Shown one piece after another: positions 3,468 to 30,966 of a stretch of 64,000 nucleotides of DNA. This DNA comes from an uncultured Alphaproteobacteria bacterium (lineage in GTDB: Bacteria; Pseudomonadota; Alphaproteobacteria; ATCC43930; CGMCC-115725). The stretch's first letter is position 1, and each line of letters starts with the position of its first letter. Where the stretch lies: contig CAVSTA010000025.1 of the NCBI GenBank assembly GCA_963730745.1, positions 1-64,000 on the forward strand. The letters run 5' to 3'. Under the pieces are notes generated by a model. It saw only the letters and a program-made list of their open reading frames with translations. It searched no databases and was not told the DNA's origin. The translations under genes and the position numbers were made by a program.

Positions 3468-3760
3468 GATGAGACGAGACCCTCCGCCGGCGGACGTTTG
3501 CGATCATTTCGGACCCCGGAGCCCGCAAGACGACACTGACCGAGAAATCGCTGCTGTTAGGCGTCGCGATCCAGCTCGCGGGCGAGGTGAAGGCGCGCGG
3601 GGAGCGACGGCGGGTGCGCTCGGATTGGATGAAGACGAGCGTAAGGGTGGCGATCTCTTTCTCCTCGGCGGTGATGAGCTTCGAGCACGAGGGGCACGCT
3701 TATGAACACTGCTCAATACGGTGGGCCACCAGGATTATCGGGAGGACACGTAGCGGTTCC
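3468..3760 (+). pseudogene. prfC: Second, diverged prfC N-terminal fragment (roughly aa 8-110) with an internal stop and frameshifts
   Basis: RRTFAIISDPGARKTTLTEKSLLLGVAIQLAGEVKARGERRRVRSDWM...SSAVMSFEHEGH...LLNTVGHQDYREDT*. About 80% DNA identity to 1349-1500. Confidence 0.55.
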
Positions 3761-3792
3761 GGCTTGGAGCACTGACCAAAGATTCGGTTGCC

Positions 3793-3900
3793 ATAATCGC
3801 ATGGTACGTCGGCGCATATCGGCGCCCGAGATCGGCAGGCAGTAGGCTTTTGGAGGGAGTTGGGAATACCTGATCTCAACCTGATAAAACAGGCAAAACA
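3793..3900 (+). repeat. Copy 1 of a ~110 bp conserved junction motif (ccataatcgcat ... ttggagggagttgggaatacctgatctcaacctgataaaacaggcaaaacagg)
   Basis: Shares the 12-mer, an SD-like box and an MPDL(D/N)LIKQ-coding start with copies at ~6600-6730 (-) and ~23500-23650 (-). Confidence 0.5.
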
Positions 3901-5084: not shown

Positions 5085-6254
5085 TTACGGTTTGAGCACG
5101 ACCTTGACGCAGCCGTCTTCCTTGTCGCGGAACGTCTTGTACATACGCGGACCGTCATCGAGGCTGACCTTGTGGGTGATGACGAACGACGGGTCGATCT
5201 GGCCCTCCTCGATGCGGTGCAGCAGATCGTCGGTCCAGCGGTTCACATGCGTCTGCCCGGTGCGCAAGGTCAGGCCCTTGTTCATGAACATCCCCATCGG
5301 GATTTTGTCCAACAGCCCGCCATAGACGCCCGGCATCGAGACCGTGCCTGCCGGACGGCAGACGTAAAAGATTTCCCTCAGCACGTGCGGCCTGTCCGTC
5401 TCGAGCATCAGCATCTGTTTCGCGCGGTCGTACATCGAGTCGATCGTGGCGGTGGCGTGCGCTTCCAGCCCGACCGCATCGATGCATTTCTCCGGCCCCT
5501 TGCCGTCGGTCAGGTCGTTCAGGCGCTCGACGACGCTCTCCTCTTCGAAATTGATCGTGATGGCGCCGCCGGCGCGCGCCATGCTGAGCCGCTCGGGCAG
5601 CCGGTCGATCGCAATGACCTGCTTGGCGCCGAGCAGGACGGCGCTGCGGATCGTCATCTGGCCGACCGGGCCGGCGCCCCAGATCGCCACCGTATCGGTC
5701 GGCTCGATGTCGCACTGGACCGCCGCCTGCCAGCCGGTCGGGAAGATGTCGCTGAGGAACAGCACCTTCTCGTCGTCGATCCCATCCGGGATCTTGACCG
5801 GGCCGACATCGGCGTAGGGAACGCGGACATATTCGGCCTGGCCGCCGGGATAACCGCCCGTCAAATGCGTATAGCCGAAGAGCCCGGCAGTCGTGTGCCC
5901 GAAGACCTTGTCGGCGAGATCCTTGTTGCGGTTGGTGCGCTCGCAGACCGAGAAATTGCCGCGCTTGCACTGGTCGCACTCGCCGCAGATGATCGTGAAC
6001 GGCACGACGACGCGGTCGCCGACTTTCAGCTTCTTGTTCTCCGAGCCGACCTCGACCACCTCGCCCATGAACTCGTGGCCCATGATGTCGCCGGATTTCA
6101 TACCCGGCATGAAGCCGTCGTAGAGGTGCAGGTCGGAGCCGCAGATCGCGGTGCTCGTGACCTTGACGATGGCATCGCGCGGATGCTCGATCCGCGGGTC
6201 AGGAACGCGGTCGCACCGAATGTCCTCTTTGCCGTGCCAGCACAGAGCTCTCAT
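5085..6254 (-). CDS. Zn-dependent alcohol dehydrogenase family protein, glutathione-independent formaldehyde dehydrogenase-like
   Basis: 389 aa with [27 protein letters not shown]-x2-C-x2-C ([10 protein letters not shown]) and a GAGPVG Rossmann motif. Confidence 0.75.
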
Positions 6255-6599
6255 CAGGAATTTCTCCTTCGGATTTGCCGAGCGGCTTGCCGCCCTATGA
6301 GGCGAAAACCGGGGCCGGCCGAGTTCGTTCCTGATTAGGCGACTTTCATGGACAGGGCGCCGTCTGCTCGCGTTGGGGTTGACGCACCGCCGATCGTCTC
6401 CACGACCGCTGTTCTGCCGGTTGCCTGACTTCGCACAATCCGTGATTAGAGTCGATTATTCCATCTTGCTGCATCTGCAGCAAATCAGCAGCAAAGCCTC
6501 GCCCATAGGTTGTTGAGCATGCCCGACCCGGAGCCGCCATCCCCGTCAAAGCAACGCCGCCGCGGCGAGCGTGGATTTCCTGCGCGAGCCGGCCCGCCG

Positions 6600-6730
6600 A
6601 CCGGGGGATCCGCCCTTGGCTGCCGCTCGTGCCGGTGCCTCGCTCCCTGTTTCCCCTGTTTTATCTGGTCGAGATCAGGCATCCGCAACTCCTTCAATCG
6701 CAATCCCGCACCCGCTCACGGGCTCGAGTG
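6600..6730 (-). repeat. Copy 2 of the conserved junction motif (ttgaaggagttgcggATGcctgatctcgaccagataaaacagg ... atgcgattatgg)
   Basis: See 3793-3900. Lies in the ~600 bp non-coding stretch between the dehydrogenase and the resolvase remnant. Confidence 0.5.
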
Positions 6731-6853
6731 TATAATGCGATTATGGTAATTGCGTGACGTTTATGCCATATTCACCAGACGGGCCGGCGCAATTCGACGC
6801 GCTTAGGCCATTTGTCCGATAACGCAAATGGGTTATGCATCCCGCAACTTATG

Positions 6854-6990
6854 ACCGAAACTCACCCGCAAAACCGCCGTTTCGGCTATGCCCGCGTCAG
6901 CACTGTCGGCCAGACGCTCGACAGCCAGCTTGAGCAGCTACGCGCCGCAGGATGCGCCGCCAAGATTTACCGCGAGAAGCAGCGCTGGTT
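6854..6990 (+). pseudogene. Serine recombinase (resolvase/invertase) N-terminal remnant
   Basis: MTETHPQNRRFGYARVSTVGQTLDSQLEQLRAAGCAAKIYREK matches the first ~43 aa of the resolvase catalytic domain, then diverges. Confidence 0.55.
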
Positions 6991-7178
6991 GCCGTTTGCG
7001 GGCGCGGTCGGGTGGGTCCTCGACGGAGCAAAATTATATTGCTTAGCGCGAGGTGGTCCAACTGGTCGGATCGGCCGGATGCCGTGAAACCGGGCATTGC
7101 CTTCTGCGCAAGCAGAACCCTTGAAACGAGCGCGATGGATGGAGCTATGTATATCCCGCTTGGATATACGAGAAGAAG

Positions 7179-7412
7179 ATGGCTCACTCGAGGATTTTTA
7201 AGACCAACCGAACCCAGGCGGTGCGCCTGCCGAAAGCGGTGGCATTCCCCGACCACGTACGCGAGGTCGAAATAATCCAGCTCGGCCAGAGCCGACTTAT
7301 AGTTCCCGTAGGGTTGCGCTGGGACGACTTCTTCCGGAATGGGCCGTCCGTATCCGAGGATTTTATGCAAGACCGGGAGCAGCCCGCCGCCGAGAGGCGA
7401 GAGCAGCTTTGA
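7179..7412 (+). CDS. vapB: VapB (AbrB/SpoVT-type) antitoxin
   Basis: MAHSRIFKTNRTQAVRLPKAVAFPDHVREVEIIQLGQSRLIVP; 4-nt overlap with vapC. Confidence 0.7.
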   Translation: MAHSRIFKTNRTQAVRLPKAVAFPDHVREVEIIQLGQSRLIVPVGLRWDDFFRNGPSVSEDFMQDREQPAAERREQL

Positions 7413-7810
7413 TGCTGCAATACATGCTGGATACGAACATCTGCGTCTACGTGCTCAAGAAACGCCCGGAGCAGCTGCGCGAAAGGTTCAACCGCTTGGC
7501 CGGGCAGCTTTGCATTTCCACGATCAGCCTAGCCGAGTTGTTGTACGGCGTGGAAAAATCATCCCGTCCGAATGAAAACCGCCAAGCGGTCGAGCAATTC
7601 GTCGCTCGGCTCGGTGTCCTGCCATTCTCGGCGTCGGCGGCCTCTCATTACGGGCAAATTAGGGTCGCTCTGGAGGGGGCCGGTCGACCGATCGGCGCGC
7701 ACGACATGCTGATCGGGGCCCACGCCCGCAGTGAAGGGATGACCGTCGTGACCAATAACCTCCGCGAGTTCGACCGTATTCCCGAGCTTGGAACGGAGAA
7801 TTGGGTTTAG
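7409..7810 (+). CDS. vapC: VapC PIN-domain toxin
   Basis: MLDTNICVYVLK...ISTISLAELLYG...HDMLIGAHARSEGMTVVTNNLREF. PIN motifs, 133 aa. Confidence 0.8.
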   Translation: MMLQYMLDTNICVYVLKKRPEQLRERFNRLAGQLCISTISLAELLYGVEKSSRPNENRQAVEQFVARLGVLPFSASAASHYGQIRVALEGAGRPIGAHDMLIGAHARSEGMTVVTNNLREFDRIPELGTENWV

Positions 7811-15714: not shown

Positions 15715-15765
15715 GGGTTGTAGCCCCTCTCCTGCACTGCGGGAGAGGGGCGGCGAGCGTAGCGA
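15715..15765. repeat. REP-like palindromic element (cccctctcctgcactgcgggagagggg) between convergent genes; possible bidirectional terminator
   Basis: Perfect hairpin; the same family recurs at 38745-38880. Confidence 0.55.
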
Positions 15766-21066: not shown

Positions 21067-21361
21067 GCGGTGACCGCGCCGGCGCACTGATCAGTCCCGG
21101 GCGCTCCTCTCCAGCCGGATGGCGGCATCAATGAGTGATGACCATGTCGGCCGTCACGGCGAGCGATGGCGCCTCGACTTCTCGACCGGCCTCATTGCCT
21201 GCACCGGAATGCGGTTGGCGCAGCCGCAGGTCTGGCCGCGTTGGCTGCGGCGATCGCTCCCTTGACCGTCATCTCGGATTTGTCGCATGGGAGACGAGCC
21301 CGGAATTTCGCAGGACGAATTTTCACGCGCTTCGCGGAGGGCACTATCGGGAGGGGATCCG

Positions 21362-22438
21362 ATGACCACGGGAGCGGCGGGTGGTTTGAGCGCCATCCCG
21401 CAACCGGTAACCGCGGCTCTGACGCGCGCGGCAATCTTTCTGGTCGCGGCGGTGAACCCGGGTGCCGACAATCGCGCCGCCGTGAGATCGCTTTGCGGAG
21501 ACCTCGCCGCGCTTTTGCGTGCGGTCGGTTTTCGCGACCCGGAGGGAAGCCTCTCCTGCGTGATGGCGATTGGGTCCGACGCGTGGGACCGGCTCTTCGG
21601 GCAGCCGCGGCCGGCGGAGTTGCATGAGTTTCGAGAGATCCGCGCGGGACCGCGCCAAGCCGTCTCCACAGCCGGCGATCTGCATTTCCACATCCGCGCG
21701 GAGCGTATGGATCTCTGCTTCGAATTGGCCACGCAAATCATGGCGCGGCTCGGGAATGCCGTTTCAGCGGTCGACGAGGTGCACGGCTTTCGGTCCTTCG
21801 ATACCCGCGATCTTCTCGGGTTCGTCGACGGGACGGAGAACCCCAGCGGCCGGGCAGCAATTGACGCCACGTTGATCGGCGACGAGGACATCGCGTTCGC
21901 GGGCGGCAGCTACGTAATCACGCAGAAATACCTGCACGATCTGACCAGCTGGAATGCGCTGCCTATAGAAGCGCAGGAGCACATCATCGGCCGCACAAAA
22001 CTGTCCGGCATCGAGCTGGATGCGGCGATCAAGCCGAGTTCGGCGCACAGTGCGCTCACCACGATCGTGGAGAACGGGAAGGAGATCAAGATCCTGCGCG
22101 ACAACATGCCTTTCGGCCGTGCCGGGCAGGGTGAGTTCGGCACGTACTTCATCGGCTACAGCCGTTCGCCGCGCACGATCGAGCAGATGCTCGAAAACAT
22201 GTTCGTGGGTCGCCCGCCGGGCAACTACGACCGGCTGCTGGACTTCAGCAGGGCCGTTACCGGCCACCTCTTCTTCGCGCCGTCTGCGACGTTTCTGGAA
22301 AACGTGACAGCCGACGAAGCCCAGCCGGTCGCGCCCGCACAATCCGTTCAGCCCGTGCCGGATGGTTCACCCCTGGCCGATGGTTCGCCCCGGCTCGATG
22401 GTTCGTTGGGCATCGGCTCGCTCAAAGGAGACCCCGGT
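21362..22438 (+). CDS. DyP-type (dye-decolorizing) peroxidase cargo protein with C-terminal encapsulin targeting peptide
   Basis: DyP motifs (HFHIRAERMDLCFE, GFVDGTENP, FIGYSRSP). Ends with a Pro/Ser-rich linker and DGSLGIGSLKG, the canonical encapsulin cargo-loading peptide. No stop codon before the downstream ATG. Confidence 0.75.
22424..22432 (+). promoter_or_regulatory. Ribosome-binding site (aaaggagac) for the encapsulin gene, embedded in the 3' end of dyp
   Basis: AAGGAG ~8 nt upstream of the encapsulin ATG at 22439. Confidence 0.5.
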
Positions 22439-23248
22439 ATGAATAATCTGCATCGCGAGCTTGCGCCGATATCCGAGGCGGCGTGGGCGCAGATCGAGGA
22501 GGAGGCCTCGCGCACCCTCAAACGCTACCTCGCCGGGCGCTGCGTGGTCGATGTGCAAGGGCCGAGCGGCACCGCCCTCTCGGCGGTCGGCACCGGTCAT
22601 CTGCGGGCTATCGCGGCGCCAGCGGAAAGCATCATCGCCCGGCAGCGCGAGGTGAAACCGTTGGTCGAGTTGCGCGTGCCGTTCGAGTTGGACCGCCAGA
22701 TGATCGACGATGTCGAGCGCGGCGCAAACAATTCCGATTGGCAGCCCGCAAAGGATGCCGCGCGACGGATCGCTTTTGCCGAGGACGGCGCCATTTTCGA
22801 GGGCTATCCTGCGGCCGGTATCGAAGGCATCCGCCAGGGGACCAGCAATCCGATTACGACATTGCCGAGCGACGTGCGTAATTACCCCGACGCGATCGCC
22901 CAGGCGTTGAACCAGCTGCGTCTGGTCGGGGTCAACGGTCCTTACTCGGTGCTGCTGGGCGCCGACGCCTATACCGCCCTCGCCGAGACCAGTGACAACG
23001 GGTATCCGGTGCTGCAGCACATCAGGCGTCTCGTCGATAGCGAAATCATCTGGGCCGCGGCCATTGCGGGCGCTTTTGTCGTCACCACCCGCGGCGGCGA
23101 TTTCGACCTGCACATCGGCCAGGACATCTCGATCGGCTATCTGAGCCACACCGATGCCGCCGTTCGCCTGTACCTGCAGGAGACGTTCACCTTCCTCCTG
23201 CTGACCACAGAGGCCGCCGTGGCGCTGGCGCCTGCGTCGGCATCCTGA
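22439..23248 (+). CDS. Family 1 encapsulin (linocin M18-like) shell protein
   Basis: 270 aa: MNNLHRELAPISEAAWAQIEEEA...PFELDRQ...NPITTLPSD... is typical HK97-fold encapsulin. In frame with upstream dyp. Confidence 0.8.
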   Translation: MNNLHRELAPISEAAWAQIEEEASRTLKRYLAGRCVVDVQGPSGTALSAVGTGHLRAIAAPAESIIARQREVKPLVELRVPFELDRQMIDDVERGANNSDWQPAKDAARRIAFAEDGAIFEGYPAAGIEGIRQGTSNPITTLPSDVRNYPDAIAQALNQLRLVGVNGPYSVLLGADAYTALAETSDNGYPVLQHIRRLVDSEIIWAAAIAGAFVVTTRGGDFDLHIGQDISIGYLSHTDAAVRLYLQETFTFLLLTTEAAVALAPASAS

Positions 23249-23304
23249 CGGTTGCTTGCGGAAGGCATCCTTGCTGGGGCTCGGCTACGCCGACCATGGT
23301 CGGA

Positions 23305-23440
23305 TCAACTCGTCCCGATCCGGCCTGGCAAACGGGGCGATTTCGCCACCGGCTTTGGCGAGATGATGCCCTCGTTGATGCCGACGATGCCGTATTCGAG
23401 CTCCTCGGCGACGCGCCAGATGCGGCCGCATGTCGCGGCT
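23305..23440 (-). pseudogene. gabD: gabD 3'-end fragment (divergent; ...[23 protein letters not shown]), broken at the FYSRD codon by a ccctcccttccctcccc-initiated element
   Basis: DNA and protein similarity to the C-terminus of the intact gabD at 29407-29760. Confidence 0.5.
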
Positions 23441-23499
23441 GTAGCCCTCCCTTCCCTCCCCGGCAAGCGGGGGAGCGCTAGGATGGGGGCATGGTCGGC

Positions 23500-23650
23500 C
23501 ATCTCGACCCGCAAAAAACGCCTGCGCCCATCGCGCACCCCCTGTTCCGCCTGTTTTATCAGGTCGAGATCAGGCATCGCCAACTCCTTCAAAAACAAAA
23601 GGCCCCGCTCGCGGGGCGCCGATCTCGCAACGATACGATGCGATTATGGC
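23500..23650 (-). repeat. Copy 3 of the conserved junction motif (ttgaaggagttggcgATGcctgatctcgacctgataaaacagg ... atgcgattatgg)
   Basis: See 3793-3900. Confidence 0.5.
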
Positions 23651-23669
23651 GACTTTACTGTTGCTTACT

Positions 23670-23770
23670 GATGGCACCGGCGGTCTCGGCGAGGCGCCTG
23701 GTGAAGGCGTCGTACACGCCGGCTTGCACCAGGATGCGGTGGGCACAGACGCAGGTCTGGCGGGGCGTCG
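23670..23770 (-). pseudogene. gabD: Short gabD mid-region fragment (roughly aa 300-330)
   Basis: ~85% DNA identity to 29935-30020. Confidence 0.4.
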
Positions 23771-23798
23771 CGCGGGGCCCAACGCGACGAAAATTCCG

Positions 23799-24140
23799 CT
23801 AGAGCCCGATCAAAGCCACCAATTTCATGCGAACTTCGTGCAGAATTTCTGCGGGAACCGCGGCTCCGGCGTAGCTGATCGGGCGCGCCATGGTATCGAT
23901 GCTCCGCACATGGCTGGTCAAGATCTCTCCGGAAACCGGCAGCCCCATCGGCAGCACAACGCTGGTGCCAAAGGGACGAACGCGCGAGGTAATCGGGCAG
24001 ACGATCGCGAACTCCGTTGCCCGGCAAAAGTCGGCAGGTGAAACGACCAGCGCGGGGCGTCGACCGCTCTGCTCGCGACCGACGCGAGGATCAAAATCGG
24101 CCCAGATAAGGTCACCCGCCTCCGGTGCGTAAGCCATCAC
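23799..24140 (-). CDS. mazF: MazF/PemK-family toxin
   Basis: GDLIWADFDPRVGREQSGRRPALVVS...FAIVCPITSRV. Confidence 0.75.
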   Translation of the reverse strand: MMAYAPEAGDLIWADFDPRVGREQSGRRPALVVSPADFCRATEFAIVCPITSRVRPFGTSVVLPMGLPVSGEILTSHVRSIDTMARPISYAGAAVPAEILHEVRMKLVALIGL

Positions 24141-24141
24141 C

Positions 24142-24396
24142 TCATTCGACGATCTCGCGACCCTTGTCAGGTCCCCAATCGAAGGCCTGGCGCATCGCCT
24201 CTGGAGTCATCCCCCGCAACAAGTCGGCGAGGACATAGCGCGGGCGAGCCGGAGAAATGATGATCCGGTCGCCCTCAGCCTCTACATCGACCCGGGCTCC
24301 CTCGCGCAGGCCCGCTCGACGCGCGATCTCCTTGGGAATGCGCAGGCCAAGGCTGTTGCCCCAGCGTGCGACCTGCACTTGCATCGGCTTCTCCAC
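24142..24396 (-). CDS. mazE: MazE/PemI (SpoVT-AbrB) antitoxin
   Basis: VARWGNSLGLRIPKEIARRAGLREGARVDVEAEGDRIIISP; immediately upstream of the toxin. Confidence 0.7.
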   Translation of the reverse strand: MEKPMQVQVARWGNSLGLRIPKEIARRAGLREGARVDVEAEGDRIIISPARPRYVLADLLRGMTPEAMRQAFDWGPDKGREIVE

Positions 24397-24437
24397 CCGC
24401 CAGGATATACATAGGATATCCGATCAATGCCGTCAAG

Positions 24438-24560
24438 TCAGCGGTCGATGCCGCCCATGCAGAGGTATTTGACCTCGAGGAATTCCTCGATGCCGTATTC
24501 GAGGGCCTCGGCGACGCGCCAGATGCGGCCGATGTCGCGGCTGTAGAAACAGGCGATGGC
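24438..24560 (-). pseudogene. gabD: gabD C-terminal fragment with an internal deletion; left half of a copy split by the MITE-like element
   Basis: [41 protein letters not shown]. Confidence 0.55.
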
Positions 24561-24875
24561 CCCCTCCCTTCCCTCCCCCGCGGGCGGCAGGGCTGTCCGG
24601 GGAATCGAACTCGGTTGCACCAGATCCGTGTCGCACAACCGCCATTGGCCAAGAAAAACCCCTCTCCGCCCTTTAGGGGGGAGAGGGAGGGGCCCGCGAA
24701 GCGGGAGGGTGAGGTGGGCGGCGCCGCAAACCGGCACGACGGCCCTCCTCACCCTACCCTCTCCCCGGCCGGCGGGGGGAGAGGATATTATTGCGGGTCA
24801 TCTGCAATGGACTTAACGGCAAAGTTGATCCTATATTTTCCCCGGACAGCCCTGCGCGGGCGGGGGAGGATTAGG
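24555..24875. mobile_element. MITE-like non-autonomous element (~320 bp) with ~30-40 bp imperfect terminal inverted repeats and internal perfect hairpins
   Basis: Left end ccctcccttccctcccccgcgggcggcagggctgtccgggg vs right end ccccggacagccctgcgcgggcgggggagg. Internal palindromes ccctctccgccctttaggggggagaggg, gggagggtgagg/cctcaccctacc and ccctctccccggccggcggggggagagg. Interrupts a gabD fragment. Confidence 0.45.
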
Positions 24876-24879
24876 GTGG

Positions 24880-25320
24880 GGGCCTCGTTGGCCGTCTTGA
24901 ACGCCTCGTCCTCGCTCTTGAAGCGGTAGAGCGGGGCGACGGGCCCTAAGGTCTCCTCCTTGTTGATGACCACGTCGGTCGTCACATCGGTCAGGACCAT
25001 CGGCTCGAAGAAGCTGCCGCGCCGTCTTCATGTTTGATGGGCGGCGCGCTTGCCGTCGGTGACGACCTCGCCGCCCTTCTTCAAGGCGTCGGCGATGTGC
25101 GCCTCGACCTTCTCGACCGCCTTCATGTCGATCAGGGGCCGATCACCGCTCCAGGCTCGGACCCGGTGGCGACCTTCGTCGCTACGGTGATCCGGGCCTG
25201 GGGAAGGCATCGCATGACACCGTCCTGCACAGAGATGCGGCTGGCGCCACGCAGGTGTGATCAGCATACGGTAGTAGGCGCGCTTAATTGCTCCCACCCC
25301 AATTGCGCTATGCGTTAAAA
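24880..25320 (-). pseudogene. gabD: gabD fragment (roughly aa 283-415), continuation of the copy split by the MITE
   Basis: ...ILVQDGV..., [72 protein letters not shown]. Confidence 0.55.
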
Positions 25321-25326
25321 GGAGTA

Positions 25327-25940
25327 ATGGTTTCTCTCCCACCGCACCTAGCGCGCACTCAAATCCGACCTGGAGGAACGAGGAAACATGCCTACGTTCA
25401 GATTCTGATCGCTGCGATTGCTTGTGCGACGCCGGCCATGACGTCCGCCGCGGCTGACTGCCATATTGACGCGAGGTCGGTCGCCGGCACCTACGGCTTA
25501 GCGGCACAGGGCGTGGCAACTGACACGAACCCCCTCGTCCCGTTGGACCGTTTGCCCAAGCGGGTACGGTAACCCAGGTCGCGACGTCGCAAACATCAAA
25601 TACGATCAGCGGCACCTGGATGCTGATATCGGAGAGAACAACGCGAACGGCTACACGCCGGATACACCCCTCAGCGGCACCTTCCAGATCGACCGGGCGA
25701 GGTGTGCCGGGGAATTCTACATAACCGGCCTCACGCGCCGGCTTTCCATGTCGTGGTCGTCGCTGGCGGTGACGAAGAGCGAGCGATTTCGGCGCTACCC
25801 AACCTGATCGTGGCATACGTCAGCGTCAAGCGCCTGTAACGGTTGCGAGTCGGACCAACCTTGGTGACGCAAACGGCTTAGCACGCCGATAATGCGACCG
25901 GCCGAGGACCTGCAATAGCGCCTGAGCTCGCAGGGCGCGA
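25327..25940 (+). other. Cargo segment with a small putative secreted protein ORF (good RBS aaaggag; signal-peptide-like ILIAAIACATPAMTSAAADC), apparently frameshifted
   Basis: ORF 25327-25572 continues in another frame (NPGRDVANIKYDQRHLDADIGENNANGYTPDTPLSGTFQIDRARCAGEFYITGLT). Flanked by direct gabD-fragment repeats. Confidence 0.3.
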
Positions 25941-26400
25941 CCAGGCCGAAAGTCTCCTCCTTGGTTTATGACCACGTCGGTCGTCACATCGGTCAGGACC
26001 GTCGGCTCGAAGAAGCTGCCGCCCTCTTCAGTTGATGGGCGGCGCGCTTGCCGCCGGTGACGACCTCGCCGCCCTTCTTCAAGGCGTCGGCGATGTGCGC
26101 CTCGACCTTCTCGACCGCCTTCATGTCGATCAGCGGCCCGATCACCGCACTAGGCTCGAACCCGTCGGCGACCTTCATCGCGCCGGCGGTTTCACCGAGG
26201 GCTCGGTGAAGGCGTCGTAGACGCCGTCCTGCACAAGGATGCGGTTGGCGCAGACGCAGGTCCGGACGGCATTGCGATATTTGGGGGCAATTGCGCTCTC
26301 GGCCGCGGCCTCGATACAGTTTTTTGACCGGGCCAGCGCACTACTCCGTCTGCAATTGCCGATCTCCCTCGGTCAGCATCAATTAGCACGATCGGGTTCG
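25940..26400 (-). pseudogene. gabD: gabD internal fragment (roughly aa 225/265-392), ending at the GPVAP codons
   Basis: [49 protein letters not shown]...[19 protein letters not shown]. Confidence 0.5.
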
Positions 26401-26433
26401 AGGCCAGCTCGCAGCCGATCCTGGCCCCGCCCG

Positions 26434-26823
26434 CTACTTCAGGACATTGCGTGCCAACCCGTGGGCGGCCTGCGCCAGCCGATCGTCATTCGTCCATAAG
26501 GCAGCGCATTGATGATGCTGGGCGCAAGCGAGGTGCAGCGCATCTGGTGTCCTCAAACCAAAGTGACCGCGGAGCTGGGCGGCTTGCAGGTAAACCGGCT
26601 CGGGCATTTCCAACGACGCGAACTGGTCGAAGAGGTCGATATAGGCGCGCTGCAGAACTGGATCCCCACGCTTGATGGGCCCTACCAGACACTCGCATTT
26701 GACCAGCGGGGAGATGCCGAAGCGGGCTCCTTCGGCTTGGGCGATCGCGCCTGCGACGGGCTCGCCCCACCGCGCATGATGCTCGGTAAGGTAGATCACC
26801 AGGCAGGCGTCGAGATAGATCAA
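26434..26823 (-). CDS. vapC: VapC PIN-domain toxin (GTG start overlapping the phd stop)
   Basis: [17 protein letters not shown]...[14 protein letters not shown]...[29 protein letters not shown]. Confidence 0.7.
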
Positions 26824-27086
26824 TCCCACGAGCTTCTCTCCAGCCGGATGGCGGCATCGATCTCCTCGGCAGAACGTCGCGCGTAGGCGGGCAGGGGATG
26901 GCCCTTGAGCCAGTCGAGAATGGCCCGGGCGCTGCCCGCATCTGCTCTTGCCGCCGGCGCCGGTCCCGTAGGCACCAGCCGAACCACCGGTTCGCCGCGG
27001 TTGGCGATGACCACCTCCTCGCCGGCCCGAGCGGCTCTTATCAGCTGTGAGAGGCGGTTCTTCGCCTCCAAGATGTTTACTTGCAC
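26820..27086 (-). CDS. phd: Phd/YefM-family antitoxin
   Basis: [39 protein letters not shown]. Confidence 0.7.
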
Positions 27087-27129
27087 GAGCCCCTACTCCG
27101 ACCTTCTCCTGGCTAGAGATGGCTATACT

Positions 27130-27414
27130 AGCCAGATGTGTAAAGGCATGTCGGTCGATGCCGCCCATGCAGAGGTATTTGACTTCGAGGAATTCCTCGA
27201 TGCCGTATTTCGAGCCCATGATCGCGGGGCCGATGCCGCTTTCCTTCATGCCGCCGAAGGGGGCGATCTCGGTCGAGATGATGCCTTCGTTGATGCCGAC
27301 GATGCCGTATTCGAGCGCCTCGGCGACGCGCCAGATGCGGCCGATGTCGCGGCTGTAGAAATAGGCGGCGAGGCCGAATTCGGTGTCGTTGGCCCATCTT
27401 TGTGGCGTCGTCAT
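27130..27414 (-). pseudogene. gabD: gabD 3'-end copy (aa ~393-end) without a stop, reading through into the phd/vapC region
   Basis: [55 protein letters not shown]...[17 protein letters not shown]. Confidence 0.6.
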
Positions 27415-27441
27415 CGGTCTCGAAGGGTCGGCCCACCAAAT

Positions 27442-27681
27442 TTAATCGTACGGGCGCCGGGAGGTGTGGCGGATGTGCACGATCCGGATGGCGTCTTCGG
27501 CGACCCGATAGAAGATCTTGTAGCGATAGCTGGGAAGCAGCGCGACGCGGACGCCCGGCCTCCGGACCACAGCGCGGCCGCTCAATGGCGATAGGGCTAT
27601 CCGTGCGATGACTTGCTGAATGCGCTCTGCGATCCTGTCAGCCGATCGCCGAATTCCCGGACCGAGCGTAATAGGCAGCAA
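27442..27681 (-). CDS. RelE/ParE-family toxin
   Basis: ...RVALLPSYRYKIFYRVAEDAIRIVHIRHTSRRP is the RelE/ParE C-terminal signature. Confidence 0.65.
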   Translation of the reverse strand: MLPITLGPGIRRSADRIAERIQQVIARIALSPLSGRAVVRRPGVRVALLPSYRYKIFYRVAEDAIRIVHIRHTSRRPYD

Positions 27682-27723
27682 TTTGTCGAAGATCGGCGAG
27701 GGCCCGCTTCGAATATTCGACCC

Positions 27724-27948
27724 TCATGCCTTCCGGAACAGGGCGAAGGCCGCGTCGACTTCGTCTTCGCTCGCGGCTTCCCCGGAGAGCCCTTCGTCGA
27801 TCGCTGCCAATTCGTCCGGCGTCGCCTCGTATTCGGCGCCGGCGAGTTCGGCCTCGATTTCGAGGGCAATCTCGGCCAGCTCCTGCTGCCGGTCTTCCGG
27901 CCAGGTCGGGACCCGTTCCAATACTGCCTTAACCTGATCCTTGGTCAT
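27724..27948 (-). CDS. Putative antitoxin partner of the RelE/ParE toxin
   Basis: 75 aa acidic protein MTKDQVKAVLERVPTWPEDRQQELAEIALEIEAEL...DEVDAAFALFRKA immediately upstream of the toxin. Confidence 0.45.
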   Translation of the reverse strand: MTKDQVKAVLERVPTWPEDRQQELAEIALEIEAELAGAEYEATPDELAAIDEGLSGEAASEDEVDAAFALFRKA

Positions 27949-27998
27949 GATTTCCTGTCCGATCCTGGCCGGTCCACTCTTGTCCGACGATACCTGGC

Positions 27999-28298
27999 TT
28001 ACCGGTCGATGCCGCCCATGCAGAGGTATTTGACTTCGAGGAATTCCTCGATGCCGTATTTCGAGCCTTCGCGGCCGATGCCGCTTTCCTTCATGCCGCC
28101 GAAGGGGGCGATCTCGGTCGAGATGATGCCCTCGTTGATGCCGACGATGCCGTATTCGAGGGCCTCGGCGACGCGCCAGATGCGGCCGATGTCGCGGCTG
28201 TAGAAATAGGCGGCGAGGCCGAATTCGGTGTCGTTGGCCATCTTGACCGCCTCGTCTTCGGCTTTGAAGCGGTAGAGCGGCGCGACGGGTCCGATCAT
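27999..28298 (-). pseudogene. gabD: gabD 3'-end copy (aa ~388-end), beginning exactly at the GPVAPLY codons
   Basis: [99 protein letters not shown]. Confidence 0.6.
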
Positions 28299-28967
28299 GA
28301 CCGCGAACCCGACCGCAACAACGTCCTGGCCCCCTTGCGAAGTTGCTCGAACAGCGCCGCATCCACGGGCTGGTTGAGAAAGCCGTGCGCGACGGCGTTA
28401 CGAACCGCAAGCCCGCGGCGGAGAACGGAATAATCGTCGTCCTCGATGATGCCCTCGGTCAGCAGCATCTTGATAAGCGCCGATGAGGAAATCCGGCGGG
28501 TGGGCGGGATCTTCAGGGGCAAGAGCCGGTGGCGCCCGGCCGCTTCGATAATCGACCATAGCAACAGAAATTCCAGGCGGCGCTGCATCGCCGTCTTCGT
28601 CGACCGAGCTCAGGTTTGCCAGGCGCGCCGAAAGATCTGGAACATCGGGCAGCTGCGAGGGCGGCGCCCATTCCGGATCCGGCAAGTCGGCGTACACTAC
28701 TTGCAGCTTCCAGCCGGCGCGATGCTCCAATGCCCTGGCGAACTGCTGGACTTGTTCGAAGCTCGCCGGCGAAGAGGTCTTGATTTCGACGACGATATTT
28801 TCCCCATTGCGATGGGCGATCAGATCCGGCGCCAGCGTGCGCAAAAACTCCGGCAATTCTCGTGGTGAAGGGTCTACCGAAACCTGGTAGCCTTGGCGCG
28901 AATACCAATCAGCATACTGTCTGATAGCTTCGCGTTCGCTGGCGACGAGGTCGGTGTCGGCACTCAT
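28295..28967 (-). CDS. Putative two-domain protein, apparently frameshifted: N-terminal PD-(D/E)xK-like nuclease fold plus C-terminal HEPN-like region with an Rx4HG motif
   Basis: N-term ...[23 protein letters not shown] (a D...E.K pattern); C-term frame ...[26 protein letters not shown] overlaps the RusA stop (ATGA). Domain assignments rest on motifs only. Confidence 0.35.
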
Positions 28968-29340
28968 GGGATCCTGCTGTGGTCGGGCGCCGGATCGGCA
29001 CGCACGTAAACGAAATCAGAACCTGCCTGCGACATGCGCTCGATTGCGTCCAACAGATATAGGCTCGCTCCGGTCAACGATAACCCAGCGCTGAAGCGGC
29101 TTTTGCGGATCAAGATCTCCGAGACCTGCTGGTCGTCCCGAAAAAGTACGCCCTTGAGACCGTCGAGCAAAGATTTCGCTATGTTGTCGACATCAAGCGT
29201 GGTTTCGCCCTGATAGAAATAGATGATCAAGACCGCGACATCCTGGTCTGTCGGTTCGCCCTCCTGTTCCAAACGTTCCCGAGCCGCTCGCGACACCCGT
29301 TCGCGCCATCGGCGCCGCGAGCGTGCGATTTGCATTCGCG
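28964..29340 (-). CDS. rusA: RusA-like Holliday-junction resolvase
   Basis: ...[39 protein letters not shown] matches the RusA DxDNxxKxxxDaL...DD.qV catalytic signature. Confidence 0.55.
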
Positions 29341-29406
29341 CTGCGGGGCGCGCCGGCAACGATAAACTCCATCCCGGTTCATCGCGCCGACGTGCCGTCG
29401 AGCCGG

Positions 29407-30867
29407 CTAGCGGTCGATGCCGCCCATGCAGAGGTATTTGACTTCGAGGAATTCCTCGATGCCGTATTTCGAGCCTTCGCGGCCGATGCCGCTTTCCTTC
29501 ATGCCGCCGAACGGGGCGATCTCGGTCGAGATGATGCCTTCGTTGATGCCGACGATGCCGTATTCGAGCGCCTCGGCGACGCGCCAGATGCGGCCGATGT
29601 CGCGGCTGTAGAAATAGGCGGCGAGGCCGAATTCGGTGTCGTTGGCCATCTTGATCGCCTCGGCTTCGGTCTTGAAGCGGTAGAGCGGCGCGACCGGGCC
29701 GAAGGTCTCCTCCTTGGTGATGACCATGTCGGTCGTCACGTCGGTCAGCACCGTCGGCTCGAAGAAGCTGCCGCCCTGCGCGGCGCGCTTGCCGCCGAGC
29801 GACCACCTTGGCGCCCTTCTTGACGGCGTCGGCGATATGCGCCTCGACCTTCTCGACCGCCTTCATGTCGATCAGCGGGCCGATCACCGCGCCCGGCTCG
29901 AACCCGTCGGCGACCTTCATCGCGCCGGCGGTCTCGGCGAGGCGCTTGGTAAAGGCGTCGTAGACGCCGTCCTGCACCAGGATGCGGTTGGCGCAGACGC
30001 AGGTCTGGCCGGCATTGCGGTATTTCGAGGCGATCGCGCCCTTGACCGCCATCTCGATATCGGCGTCGTCGAAGACGATGAACGGCGCGTTGCCGCCCAA
30101 TTCCATCGACAGTCTTCTTGACCGTGCCGGCGCACTGCTCCATCAGCAATTTGCCGACCTCGGTCGAGCCGGTGAAGGTCAGCTTGCGCACGATCGGGTT
30201 CGAGGTCATCTCGCCGCCGATCTCCTTCGACGTCGCCGGTGACGCAGGAAAAGACGCCCTTCGGCACGCCGGCGCGCTCGGCCAATTCGCACAAGGCCAG
30301 CGCCGAATAGGGGGTCGCGGTCGCCGGCTTCACCACCATCGTGCAGCCGGCGGCCAGGGCCGGGCCGCATTTGCGGGTGATCATCGCCGCCGGGAAGTTC
30401 CACGGCGTGATCGCGGCGCAGACGCCGATCGGCTCCTTGGTCACGACGATGCGCTTGTCGGAGGCGTGCGCCGGGATCGTGTCGCCGTAGATGCGCTTGC
30501 CCTCCTCGCCGAACCATTCGATGAAGGCGGCGGCATAGGCGATCTCGCCCTTCGACTCGGCAAGCGGCTTGCCCTGCTCGGCGGTCATCAGCGCGGCGAG
30601 ATCCTCCTGGTTCGCCATCATCAGATCGAACCATTTGCGCAGGATCTGCGCGCGCTCCTTGGCGGTCTTGCCGCGCCAGCCCGGCAGGGCGCGGTCGGCC
30701 GCCTCGATCGCCTGGCGGGTCTCCTCGGCGCCCATCCGCGGCACCGTGCCCAAGGTCTCGCCGGTCGCCGGGTTGGTGACCGGGATCGTGCCGCGGTTCA
30801 ACGCGTCGACCCATTCGCCATTGACGTAGCATTGCTGGCGGAACAGCTTCGGATCCTTGAGCTCCAT
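29407..30867 (-). CDS. gabD: NAD(P)-dependent succinate-semialdehyde dehydrogenase, full length but with ~3 apparent frameshifts
   Basis: N-term [22 protein letters not shown]...[18 protein letters not shown]; mid ...[14 protein letters not shown]...[16 protein letters not shown]...; C-term ...[16 protein letters not shown]. Confidence 0.8.
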
Positions 30868-30966
30868 CGCGCACCTCCCTCGGCTCGGTGATTAAGGATA
30901 GGTACGGCCCGGCTTCGGCTTTCGCAAGGCGGGCTGCGATCGAGATGCAAAAACCAGTTCGCCGAT

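Follow-up and report, generated by a model that had tools for sequence, protein, structure and literature searches.

In the 64-kb stretch of DNA analysed here (the window), a 267-bp MITE with ISRm22-type ends has very probably inserted into the loop of a REP-type hairpin, which itself lies within a fragment of a gabD gene. Four layers are thus nested in one another at this locus: a gabD pseudogene fragment, within it a REP-type hairpin, the MITE within the hairpin loop, and a mosaic repeat within the MITE.

Anatomy of the 267-bp element

The MITE (24588-24854) is bounded by perfect terminal inverted repeats (TIRs) of 17 bp, CAGGGCTGTCCGGGGAA at 24588-24604 and its perfect complement TTCCCCGGACAGCCCTG at 24838-24854 (both given for the plus strand). 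Each end is abutted by the exact 9-bp direct repeat CGCGGGCGG (24579-24587 on the left, 24855-24863 on the right), the target-site duplication that the earlier note had proposed to look for. Outside the duplication lie the two arms of a REP-type target hairpin, GGCCCCCTCCCTTCCCTCCCC at 24558-24578 and GGGAGGATTAGGGTGGGGGCC at 24864-24884, that pair with each other. Together with the adjacent G/C, the TIRs form a perfect 18-nt inverted repeat (GCAGGGCTGTCCGGGGAA at 24587-24604, complement at 24838-24855); at up to three mismatches, this repeat had 3 matches in the window versus 0.15 expected, a number that was reached in none of 100 shuffles. The perfect inverted repeat over 17-18 bp is not a chance feature. 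When folded as single-stranded DNA, the ~320-bp segment as a whole had a free energy of −110.7 kcal/mol (z = −8.5 versus shuffles).

The earlier note had described this segment as one element with imperfect inverted repeats of 30-40 bp. A segment of ~320 bp bounded by inverted repeats is indeed present (24558-24884, from reading of the sequence and a repeat scan); the mobile element, however, does not extend over 24555-24875, but is confined to the 267 bp between 24588 and 24854. The proposed 30-40 bp TIR is of composite nature: a hairpin arm of 21 nt is followed by a 9-bp repeat that is direct, and then by the true TIR of 17 bp. Similarly, several near-perfect hairpins were found in the interior, but the three hairpins had been described as perfect, and one of them contains a G/G mismatch while the large one is 76% complementary.

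The element is shorter than ~600 bp, has TIRs and a target-site duplication and does not code for a transposase, as expected of a MITE. It had no protein family match, and a Pfam search of the two ORFs overlapping the 267 bp yielded nothing. A transposase is likewise absent from the 64-kb window, in which a tblastn search with the ISRm22 transposase gave nothing below E = 0.99. As neither the element nor the window contains a transposase, the element is a MITE with IS4Sa-type ends and not an IS. No second copy of the MITE was found within the window; over the whole window, no Rfam family was detected at gathering thresholds, and ARAGORN found neither tRNA nor tmRNA. An outward-facing promoter-like site at 24808-24837 (score 9/12) was dismissed, its sequence being unconserved in the subfamily alignment.

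ISRm22-type ends and relatives of the element

The lead to ISRm22 came from a blastn comparison of the segment with the PLSDB plasmids: The sole match was a stretch of 46 nt on pSymB of S. meliloti that comprised the right TIR and the hairpin arm (89-91% identity of right hairpin arm and right TIR to the sequence adjoining the pSymB IS); copies of the MITE were not found among the PLSDB plasmids by this search. The pSymB copy is an element of 1299 bp with the same perfect ends as the window MITE, is labelled 'ISRm16 family' by PGAP, and encodes a protein of 390 aa that matched NCBIfam transpos_IS4_1 at 236 bits (cut-off 115). It is located in a CCCCTCTCCCC...GGGGAGAGGG hairpin, the GCAGGCG(G) loop of which is duplicated. 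ISRm22 has been assigned to the IS4 family, and all of its copies in S. meliloti 1021 have been reported to reside in REPs at the axis of palindromy (Tobes and Pareja, PMC1525189); its ends are printed as CAGGGCTGTCCGGGGAAAGTTC... and ...GGACAGCCCTG, with direct repeats and fragments of REPs on their outer sides (Additional file 5, PMC1525189). The left TIR of the window MITE is identical to the ISRm22 end in this file and to that of the pSymB copy. Within the IS4 family, ISRm22 belongs to the subgroup IS4Sa, which is characterized by CA ends and duplications of 8-10 bp (De Palmenaer et al., Table 1, PMC2266710); conserved target arms of ISRm22 are noted by the same authors.

Each of these published features of the ends and the target was found in the window MITE. 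The termini CAGGG...CCCTG together with the 9-bp duplication fit the IS4Sa subgroup (5'-CA ends, repeats of 8-10 bp); the DDE transposase with YREK motif of this subgroup is missing from the window element. ISRm22 and the MITE have identical 17-bp TIRs, 5'-CA ends and a duplication of ~9 bp, and each has inserted into a GC-rich REP palindrome (CCCTCTCCCC/GGGGAGAGGG type) at its axis. In contrast, ISRm22 has a size of ~1.3 kb and encodes a DDE transposase, whereas the window element comprises 267 bp and encodes nothing. Similarity to ISRm22 (pSymB copy) was restricted to the terminal 17-21 nt, the interior of the MITE being unrelated. In consequence, an origin of the element as a deletion derivative of ISRm22 itself was not demonstrable: Homology was found neither in the interior nor in the sub-terminal parts, the alignment being limited to 17-21 terminal nt. 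It is the ends, the length of the duplication and the target that tie the element to ISRm22; the interior does not derive from ISRm22 and consists of short sub-terminal sequences and a ~130-bp mosaic hairpin repeat. The element is most likely moved in trans, and the responsible ISRm22-like DDE transposase would be encoded in another part of the genome.

An autonomous IS with such ends was present on a soil metagenome contig (L050, Ga0210399_10009691), on which positions 6192-7470 are occupied by a full-length IS of 1279 bp with the same perfect 17-bp ends; its transposase (DDE_Tnp_1 and DUF4372) shares 56% identity with the ISRm22 enzyme. The occurrence of autonomous partners with these ends is therefore not limited to Sinorhizobium.

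To collect relatives of the MITE, one genome of each species was scanned with a two-arm pattern (GGCTGTCCGGGG, 207-267 nt, CCCCGGACAGCC). The pattern occurred in 37 stretches, 35 of which were judged real elements (237-294 bp); they derived from Methylobacterium, Rhodoblastus, Methylocapsa, Roseiarcus, Mesorhizobium, Devosiaceae, Reyranellaceae, Lichenihabitans and uncultured Alphaproteobacteria. The two actinobacterial stretches (L020, L024) were rejected as chance matches that shared no more than the 12-13 nt required by the pattern and had neither CA/TG ends nor a duplication. In 14 of 38 elements (the 37 stretches and the window element), the ends were abutted by an exact direct repeat of 7 bp or more; controls that combined left and right flanks of different loci gave 0.9 such cases on average and 4 at most. 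Several further elements had a direct repeat with one mismatch, and imperfect or shifted duplications were seen in many relatives. According to their interiors, the elements sort into at least eight subfamilies that have the ends alone in common. Indeed, the 17-bp ends remained unchanged across the IS copies (with transposases of 56% identity) and at least eight MITE subfamilies from many alphaproteobacterial families. Two elements deviate in their surroundings: In one of them (L010, 1546-1777) the flanks are inverted instead of direct, a 22-nt inverted repeat including the flank, and in the other (L027, ~3530-3822) a second, degenerate TIR copy is found ~30 nt upstream; the two have the appearance of insertions that were rearranged or nested.

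The subfamily of the window element includes one relative that is homologous over the full length at 81% identity (L017), three full-length copies at 73-75% within a single MAG (L016, L023 and L026 in MFD03346.bin.2.45), and a more distant one at 65% (L011). The closest copy among the matches listed resides on a metagenome contig (L077; 93% over all 267 nt), where it occupies a different hairpin and is flanked by its own duplication, CGCGAAAGCG. The relatives in this subfamily lie at different loci with different duplications, and 20 metagenome contigs among the matches listed for the interior contained both TIRs, each with its own flanks; the family is therefore present in multiple copies at different loci. 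With the TIRs, the target-site duplication and these relatives elsewhere, the suggestion of a small non-autonomous transposable element in the earlier note was supported.

In the searchable literature, a description of MITEs with these ends was not found, and a full-text search for the TIR string gave unrelated primer-type matches only. The MiniMdi3 element of Methylobacterium extorquens is comparable as a short, non-coding, TIR-bounded bacterial MITE that has its ends in common with an autonomous IS of the same bacterial group. As a known counterpart it was rejected: MiniMdi3 has a length of 382-416 bp and is related to ISMdi3 of the IS3 family, and hence is unrelated to the window element.

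REP-type hairpins as target and as passenger

Based on 20 reconstructed target sites (those with a 9-bp repeat of at most one mismatch), the target consensus is CCCTCTCC-C(N7)G-GGAGAGGG, palindromic around the 9-bp duplication. Correspondingly, the flanks of most elements from the pattern scan were of the CCCTCTCC type on the left and of the GGAGAGGG type on the right, and two-tier arms like those of the window's flank were observed in three metagenome copies (L051, L062, L069). In the type 1 association defined by Tobes and Pareja (PMC1525189), insertion takes place at a fixed position of the REP, its axis, and the broken REP halves flank the inserted element; this is the arrangement in the window, where the broken hairpin arms (24558-24578 and 24864-24884) flank the duplication at the axis. 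The MITE would accordingly have been inserted at the symmetry axis of the hairpin, as is the case for ISRm22, with duplication of the 9-bp loop. The earlier note had considered gabD-derived sequence to be the preferred insertion site. This view was not sustained: the target is the loop of a REP-type hairpin, and since none of the other copies of the MITE family examined lies in gabD, gabD itself is not preferred.

Site-specific insertion, with one position of the repetitive extragenic palindrome always being used, is a feature that the MITE shares with other REP-targeting insertion sequences, which differ from it in that they are autonomous and have transposases of other families (IS110, IS3), other ends and other duplication lengths. 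IS1397 and ISKpn1 are REP-targeting elements of this kind in enterobacterial BIMEs. Further examples are ISPpu9/ISPpu10, ISPa11, ISPsy8 and ISRm19 (PMC1525189).

The interior of the MITE contains a module of ~130 bp at 24659-24787 (MITE positions 72-200) that occurs as an independent repeat in soil metagenomes. An interior 23-mer used as query against metagenome contigs was found on at least 120 soil contigs (L040-L159). Among these matches listed (120 read), 20 had both TIRs nearby and 22 had one, whereas 78 of 120 were without a TIR within 220 nt, a count that includes some modules at a distance of 180 nt or less from the contig end. In most matches listed, the similarity to the window element was confined to positions 72-200; the module boundaries were sharp and the flanks unrelated. 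A copy of the module (2681-2824) was also present on the 7.5-kb contig that carries the 1279-bp IS. In its structure, the module is a GC-rich mosaic of hairpins (CCCCTCTCCGCCCTTCAGGGGGGAGAGGG ... GGGAGGGTGAGGTGGGCGGCGCC ... CCCTCTCCCCCCGGCCGGCGGGGGGAGAGGG), with CCCTCTCCCC-GGCCGGC-GGGGGGAGAGG as an internal hairpin; the consensus that RNAalifold derived from 61 module copies was poor (−11 kcal/mol, 11 pairs), the sub-hairpins of the mosaic being interchangeable. As the module is common without TIRs and has sharp ends and unrelated flanks, the three or four internal hairpins constitute a separate ~130-bp mosaic repeat that is carried by the window's MITE subfamily.

Both the outer hairpin and the ~130-bp module resemble the REP, BIME and RIME palindromes in that they are GC-rich imperfect palindromes and occur in variable combinations and, probably in the case of the outer hairpin, in many copies. 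They differ in that such palindromes are here the target and the passenger of the MITE and not the MITE itself, and in that one copy of the hairpin is located within a gene fragment instead of between genes. Similar REP-type hairpins are present elsewhere in the window (15724, 38765 and ~38830), in addition to the copies at 23445 and 24558 that lie in gabD pseudogene fragments. It could be argued that no transposon exists at all, and that a cluster of REP/BIME-like palindromes has grown in place, with ordinary REP arms as the inverted repeats. This view would agree with the CCCTCTCC(N7)GGAGAGGG hairpins at 15724 and 38765 and with the occurrence of the interior 24659-24787 as a mosaic hairpin repeat without TIRs in most metagenome matches listed. 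The 17-bp ends, however, are not REP-like in sequence, and identical ends bound a transposase-encoding IS both in S. meliloti and on the soil contig; moreover, the element is flanked by an exact 9-bp duplication, and duplications specific to the locus were found at other sites, so that growth in place is very unlikely. The earlier note had regarded an explanation of the inverted repeats as ordinary REP palindromes as evidence against a transposable element; such an explanation holds true for the outer arms only.

The gabD fragments and the history of the insertion

The interruption of a gabD 3' fragment described in the earlier note was confirmed by blastn: Homology to the main gabD copy extends over 24428-24555 (minus strand, 90-97%; 3' part of fragment A, which includes the stop codon at 24438-24440) and is resumed at 24885-25267 (minus strand; 5' part, 81% over 393 nt). 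The comparison of gabD copies that had been proposed as a check, comprising three uninterrupted copies and a second fragment, defined the anatomy of the insertion. In this second fragment (fragment B), the part adjoining the hairpin (23359-23444, minus strand) is 96.5% identical to the main copy and contains a 1-nt insertion by which the frame is shifted after YSRD. The hairpin of fragment B (23445-23490) is an unoccupied paralog with the arms CCCTCCCTTCCCTCCCC / GGGGGAGCGCTAGGATGGGGGC and the loop GGCAAGC, as established by colinear alignment with fragment A. Its left arm (23445-23461) is the same as the arm of fragment A and is free of an insertion; the arms of the two hairpins are identical at 17/17 and 17/21 positions. 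When the MITE and one copy of the duplication are removed from fragment A, a simple hairpin is restored and the fragment becomes colinear with fragment B through the hairpin. In effect, the hairpin at 23445-23490 serves as an empty site.

Both fragments had been thought to be broken at the same codon. In gabD direction, the two do share the position at which gabD gives way to the hairpin, just behind the GCC codon of A-N-D/E-A, and this junction is identical; on the far side, fragment B lacks 15 nt that are kept in fragment A (..AIACF) before the FYSRD codons follow, and the breaks on the FYSRD side hence do not coincide. The sequence block reported as common to both fragments is likewise real, CCCTCCCTTCCCTCCCC being found exactly twice in the window (23445 and 24562), but ccctcccttccctcccc represents the arm of the target hairpin and not an element end.

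These observations bear on the initial proposal that the whole ~320-bp segment (24555-24875) is one MITE with imperfect TIRs of 30-40 bp and a preference for gabD, and that the second fragment carries a solo end. The outer arms are indeed inverted repeats continuous with the inner ones, and the second fragment has this block at a comparable place in gabD. Nevertheless, 23445-23490 contains both outer arms joined directly by a 7-nt loop, and hence a self-contained hairpin and not a solo end; the repeat between outer arms and inner TIRs is a 9-bp direct and not an inverted one; the 267-bp core has other outer flanks in its relatives, and no relative examined lies in gabD; and in none of the ~55 elements examined was the CCCTCCCTTCCCTCCCC arm seen to travel to an unrelated locus. 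The proposal of a single ~320-bp element is very unlikely, and a 267-bp MITE within a pre-existing hairpin is preferred.

Fragments A and B belong to an array (21089-30900) of 5'-truncated gabD 3' fragments, all on the minus strand, that alternate with small cargo: a DyP/encapsulin ORF (21287-23248, plus strand), MazE and MazF (23799-24396), Phd and PIN (26434-27086), ParE (27442-27681), and RusA with an AHJR-like nuclease (28398-29350). Most of the fragments reach the gabD stop region, past which the cargo starts after ~30-65 nt; fragment C ends earlier (q1214). From this arrangement we infer that the array may have arisen by repeated single-crossover insertion of circles composed of a gabD 3' part and cargo, which would give such a pattern. 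The least probable of the readings considered is that the hairpin of the two gabD fragments is an attC-like recombination site which built the gabD/toxin-antitoxin array, the MITE being incidental: although gabD 3' fragments do alternate with small cargo genes over 21089-30900 and two of these fragments have the hairpin, it is located inside gabD-derived sequence (~q1272-1290) and not at the fragment/cargo boundaries, which argues against a role in array assembly, it is lacking in fragments C, D and E and in the main copy, and hairpins of this type are a generic target of the MITE family at unrelated loci. With the hairpin inside gabD-derived sequence in both fragments, the further idea of an element end co-opted in a cassette junction is abandoned as well.

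The longest gabD copy of the array (29390-30867, minus strand) contains three +1 frame changes; its stitched product of 487 aa scored 855 bits on NF008415 (NADP-dependent succinate-semialdehyde dehydrogenase, equivalog cut-off 828), which suggests that this copy either became a pseudogene very recently or is affected by indel errors of the assembly. Several further features were observed. The DyP/encapsulin ORF at 21287-23248 (plus strand) is a single ORF of 653 aa, in which a DyP-type peroxidase (Dyp_perox_N, Dyp_perox_C) is fused to an encapsulin shell protein (Linocin_M18), and has a set of gabD remnants on either side. Between fragments A and C, identity amounts to 97-98% over ~170 nt (24962-25140 versus 25964-26138) but drops to ~80-83% in adjoining stretches, a patch that suggests gene conversion. 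A 74-nt repeat of 80% identity (6624-6697 and 23519-23592) comprises the ribosome-binding region and the start (MPDLD..IKQ) of a small minus-strand ORF; the second of the two copies, located upstream of the hairpin, forms an in-frame fusion with gabD fragment B.

For the MITE within its hairpin, the simplest history would comprise three steps in the order of hairpin, duplication and MITE: The hairpin would have entered a gabD 3' fragment that was already redundant and decaying; the hairpin-bearing fragment would then have been duplicated within the local array of gabD fragments; and the MITE would finally have inserted in one of the two copies. The earlier duplication of the fragment would account for the hairpin that the sister fragment keeps unoccupied (23445-23490). 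Perfect TIRs and a perfect duplication indicate a comparatively recent insertion of the MITE.

The reading in four layers clears up the annotation of a confusing stretch. An insertion of this sort is an ordinary event of a well-understood type, and the concept of how such elements work is left unchanged by the finding. If the hairpins of the interior module are usable as targets, the MITE would spread the landing sites of its own transposase; this is a speculative and rather doubtful idea, but if true, the MITE would be a vehicle of REP dispersal independent of RAYT enzymes. In practical terms, MAGs can be masked or annotated for these elements and the hairpins that they target, and the insertions may be used as polymorphism markers. 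The published REP targeting of ISRm22 is also extended to widespread non-autonomous elements of soil and plant-associated Alphaproteobacteria.
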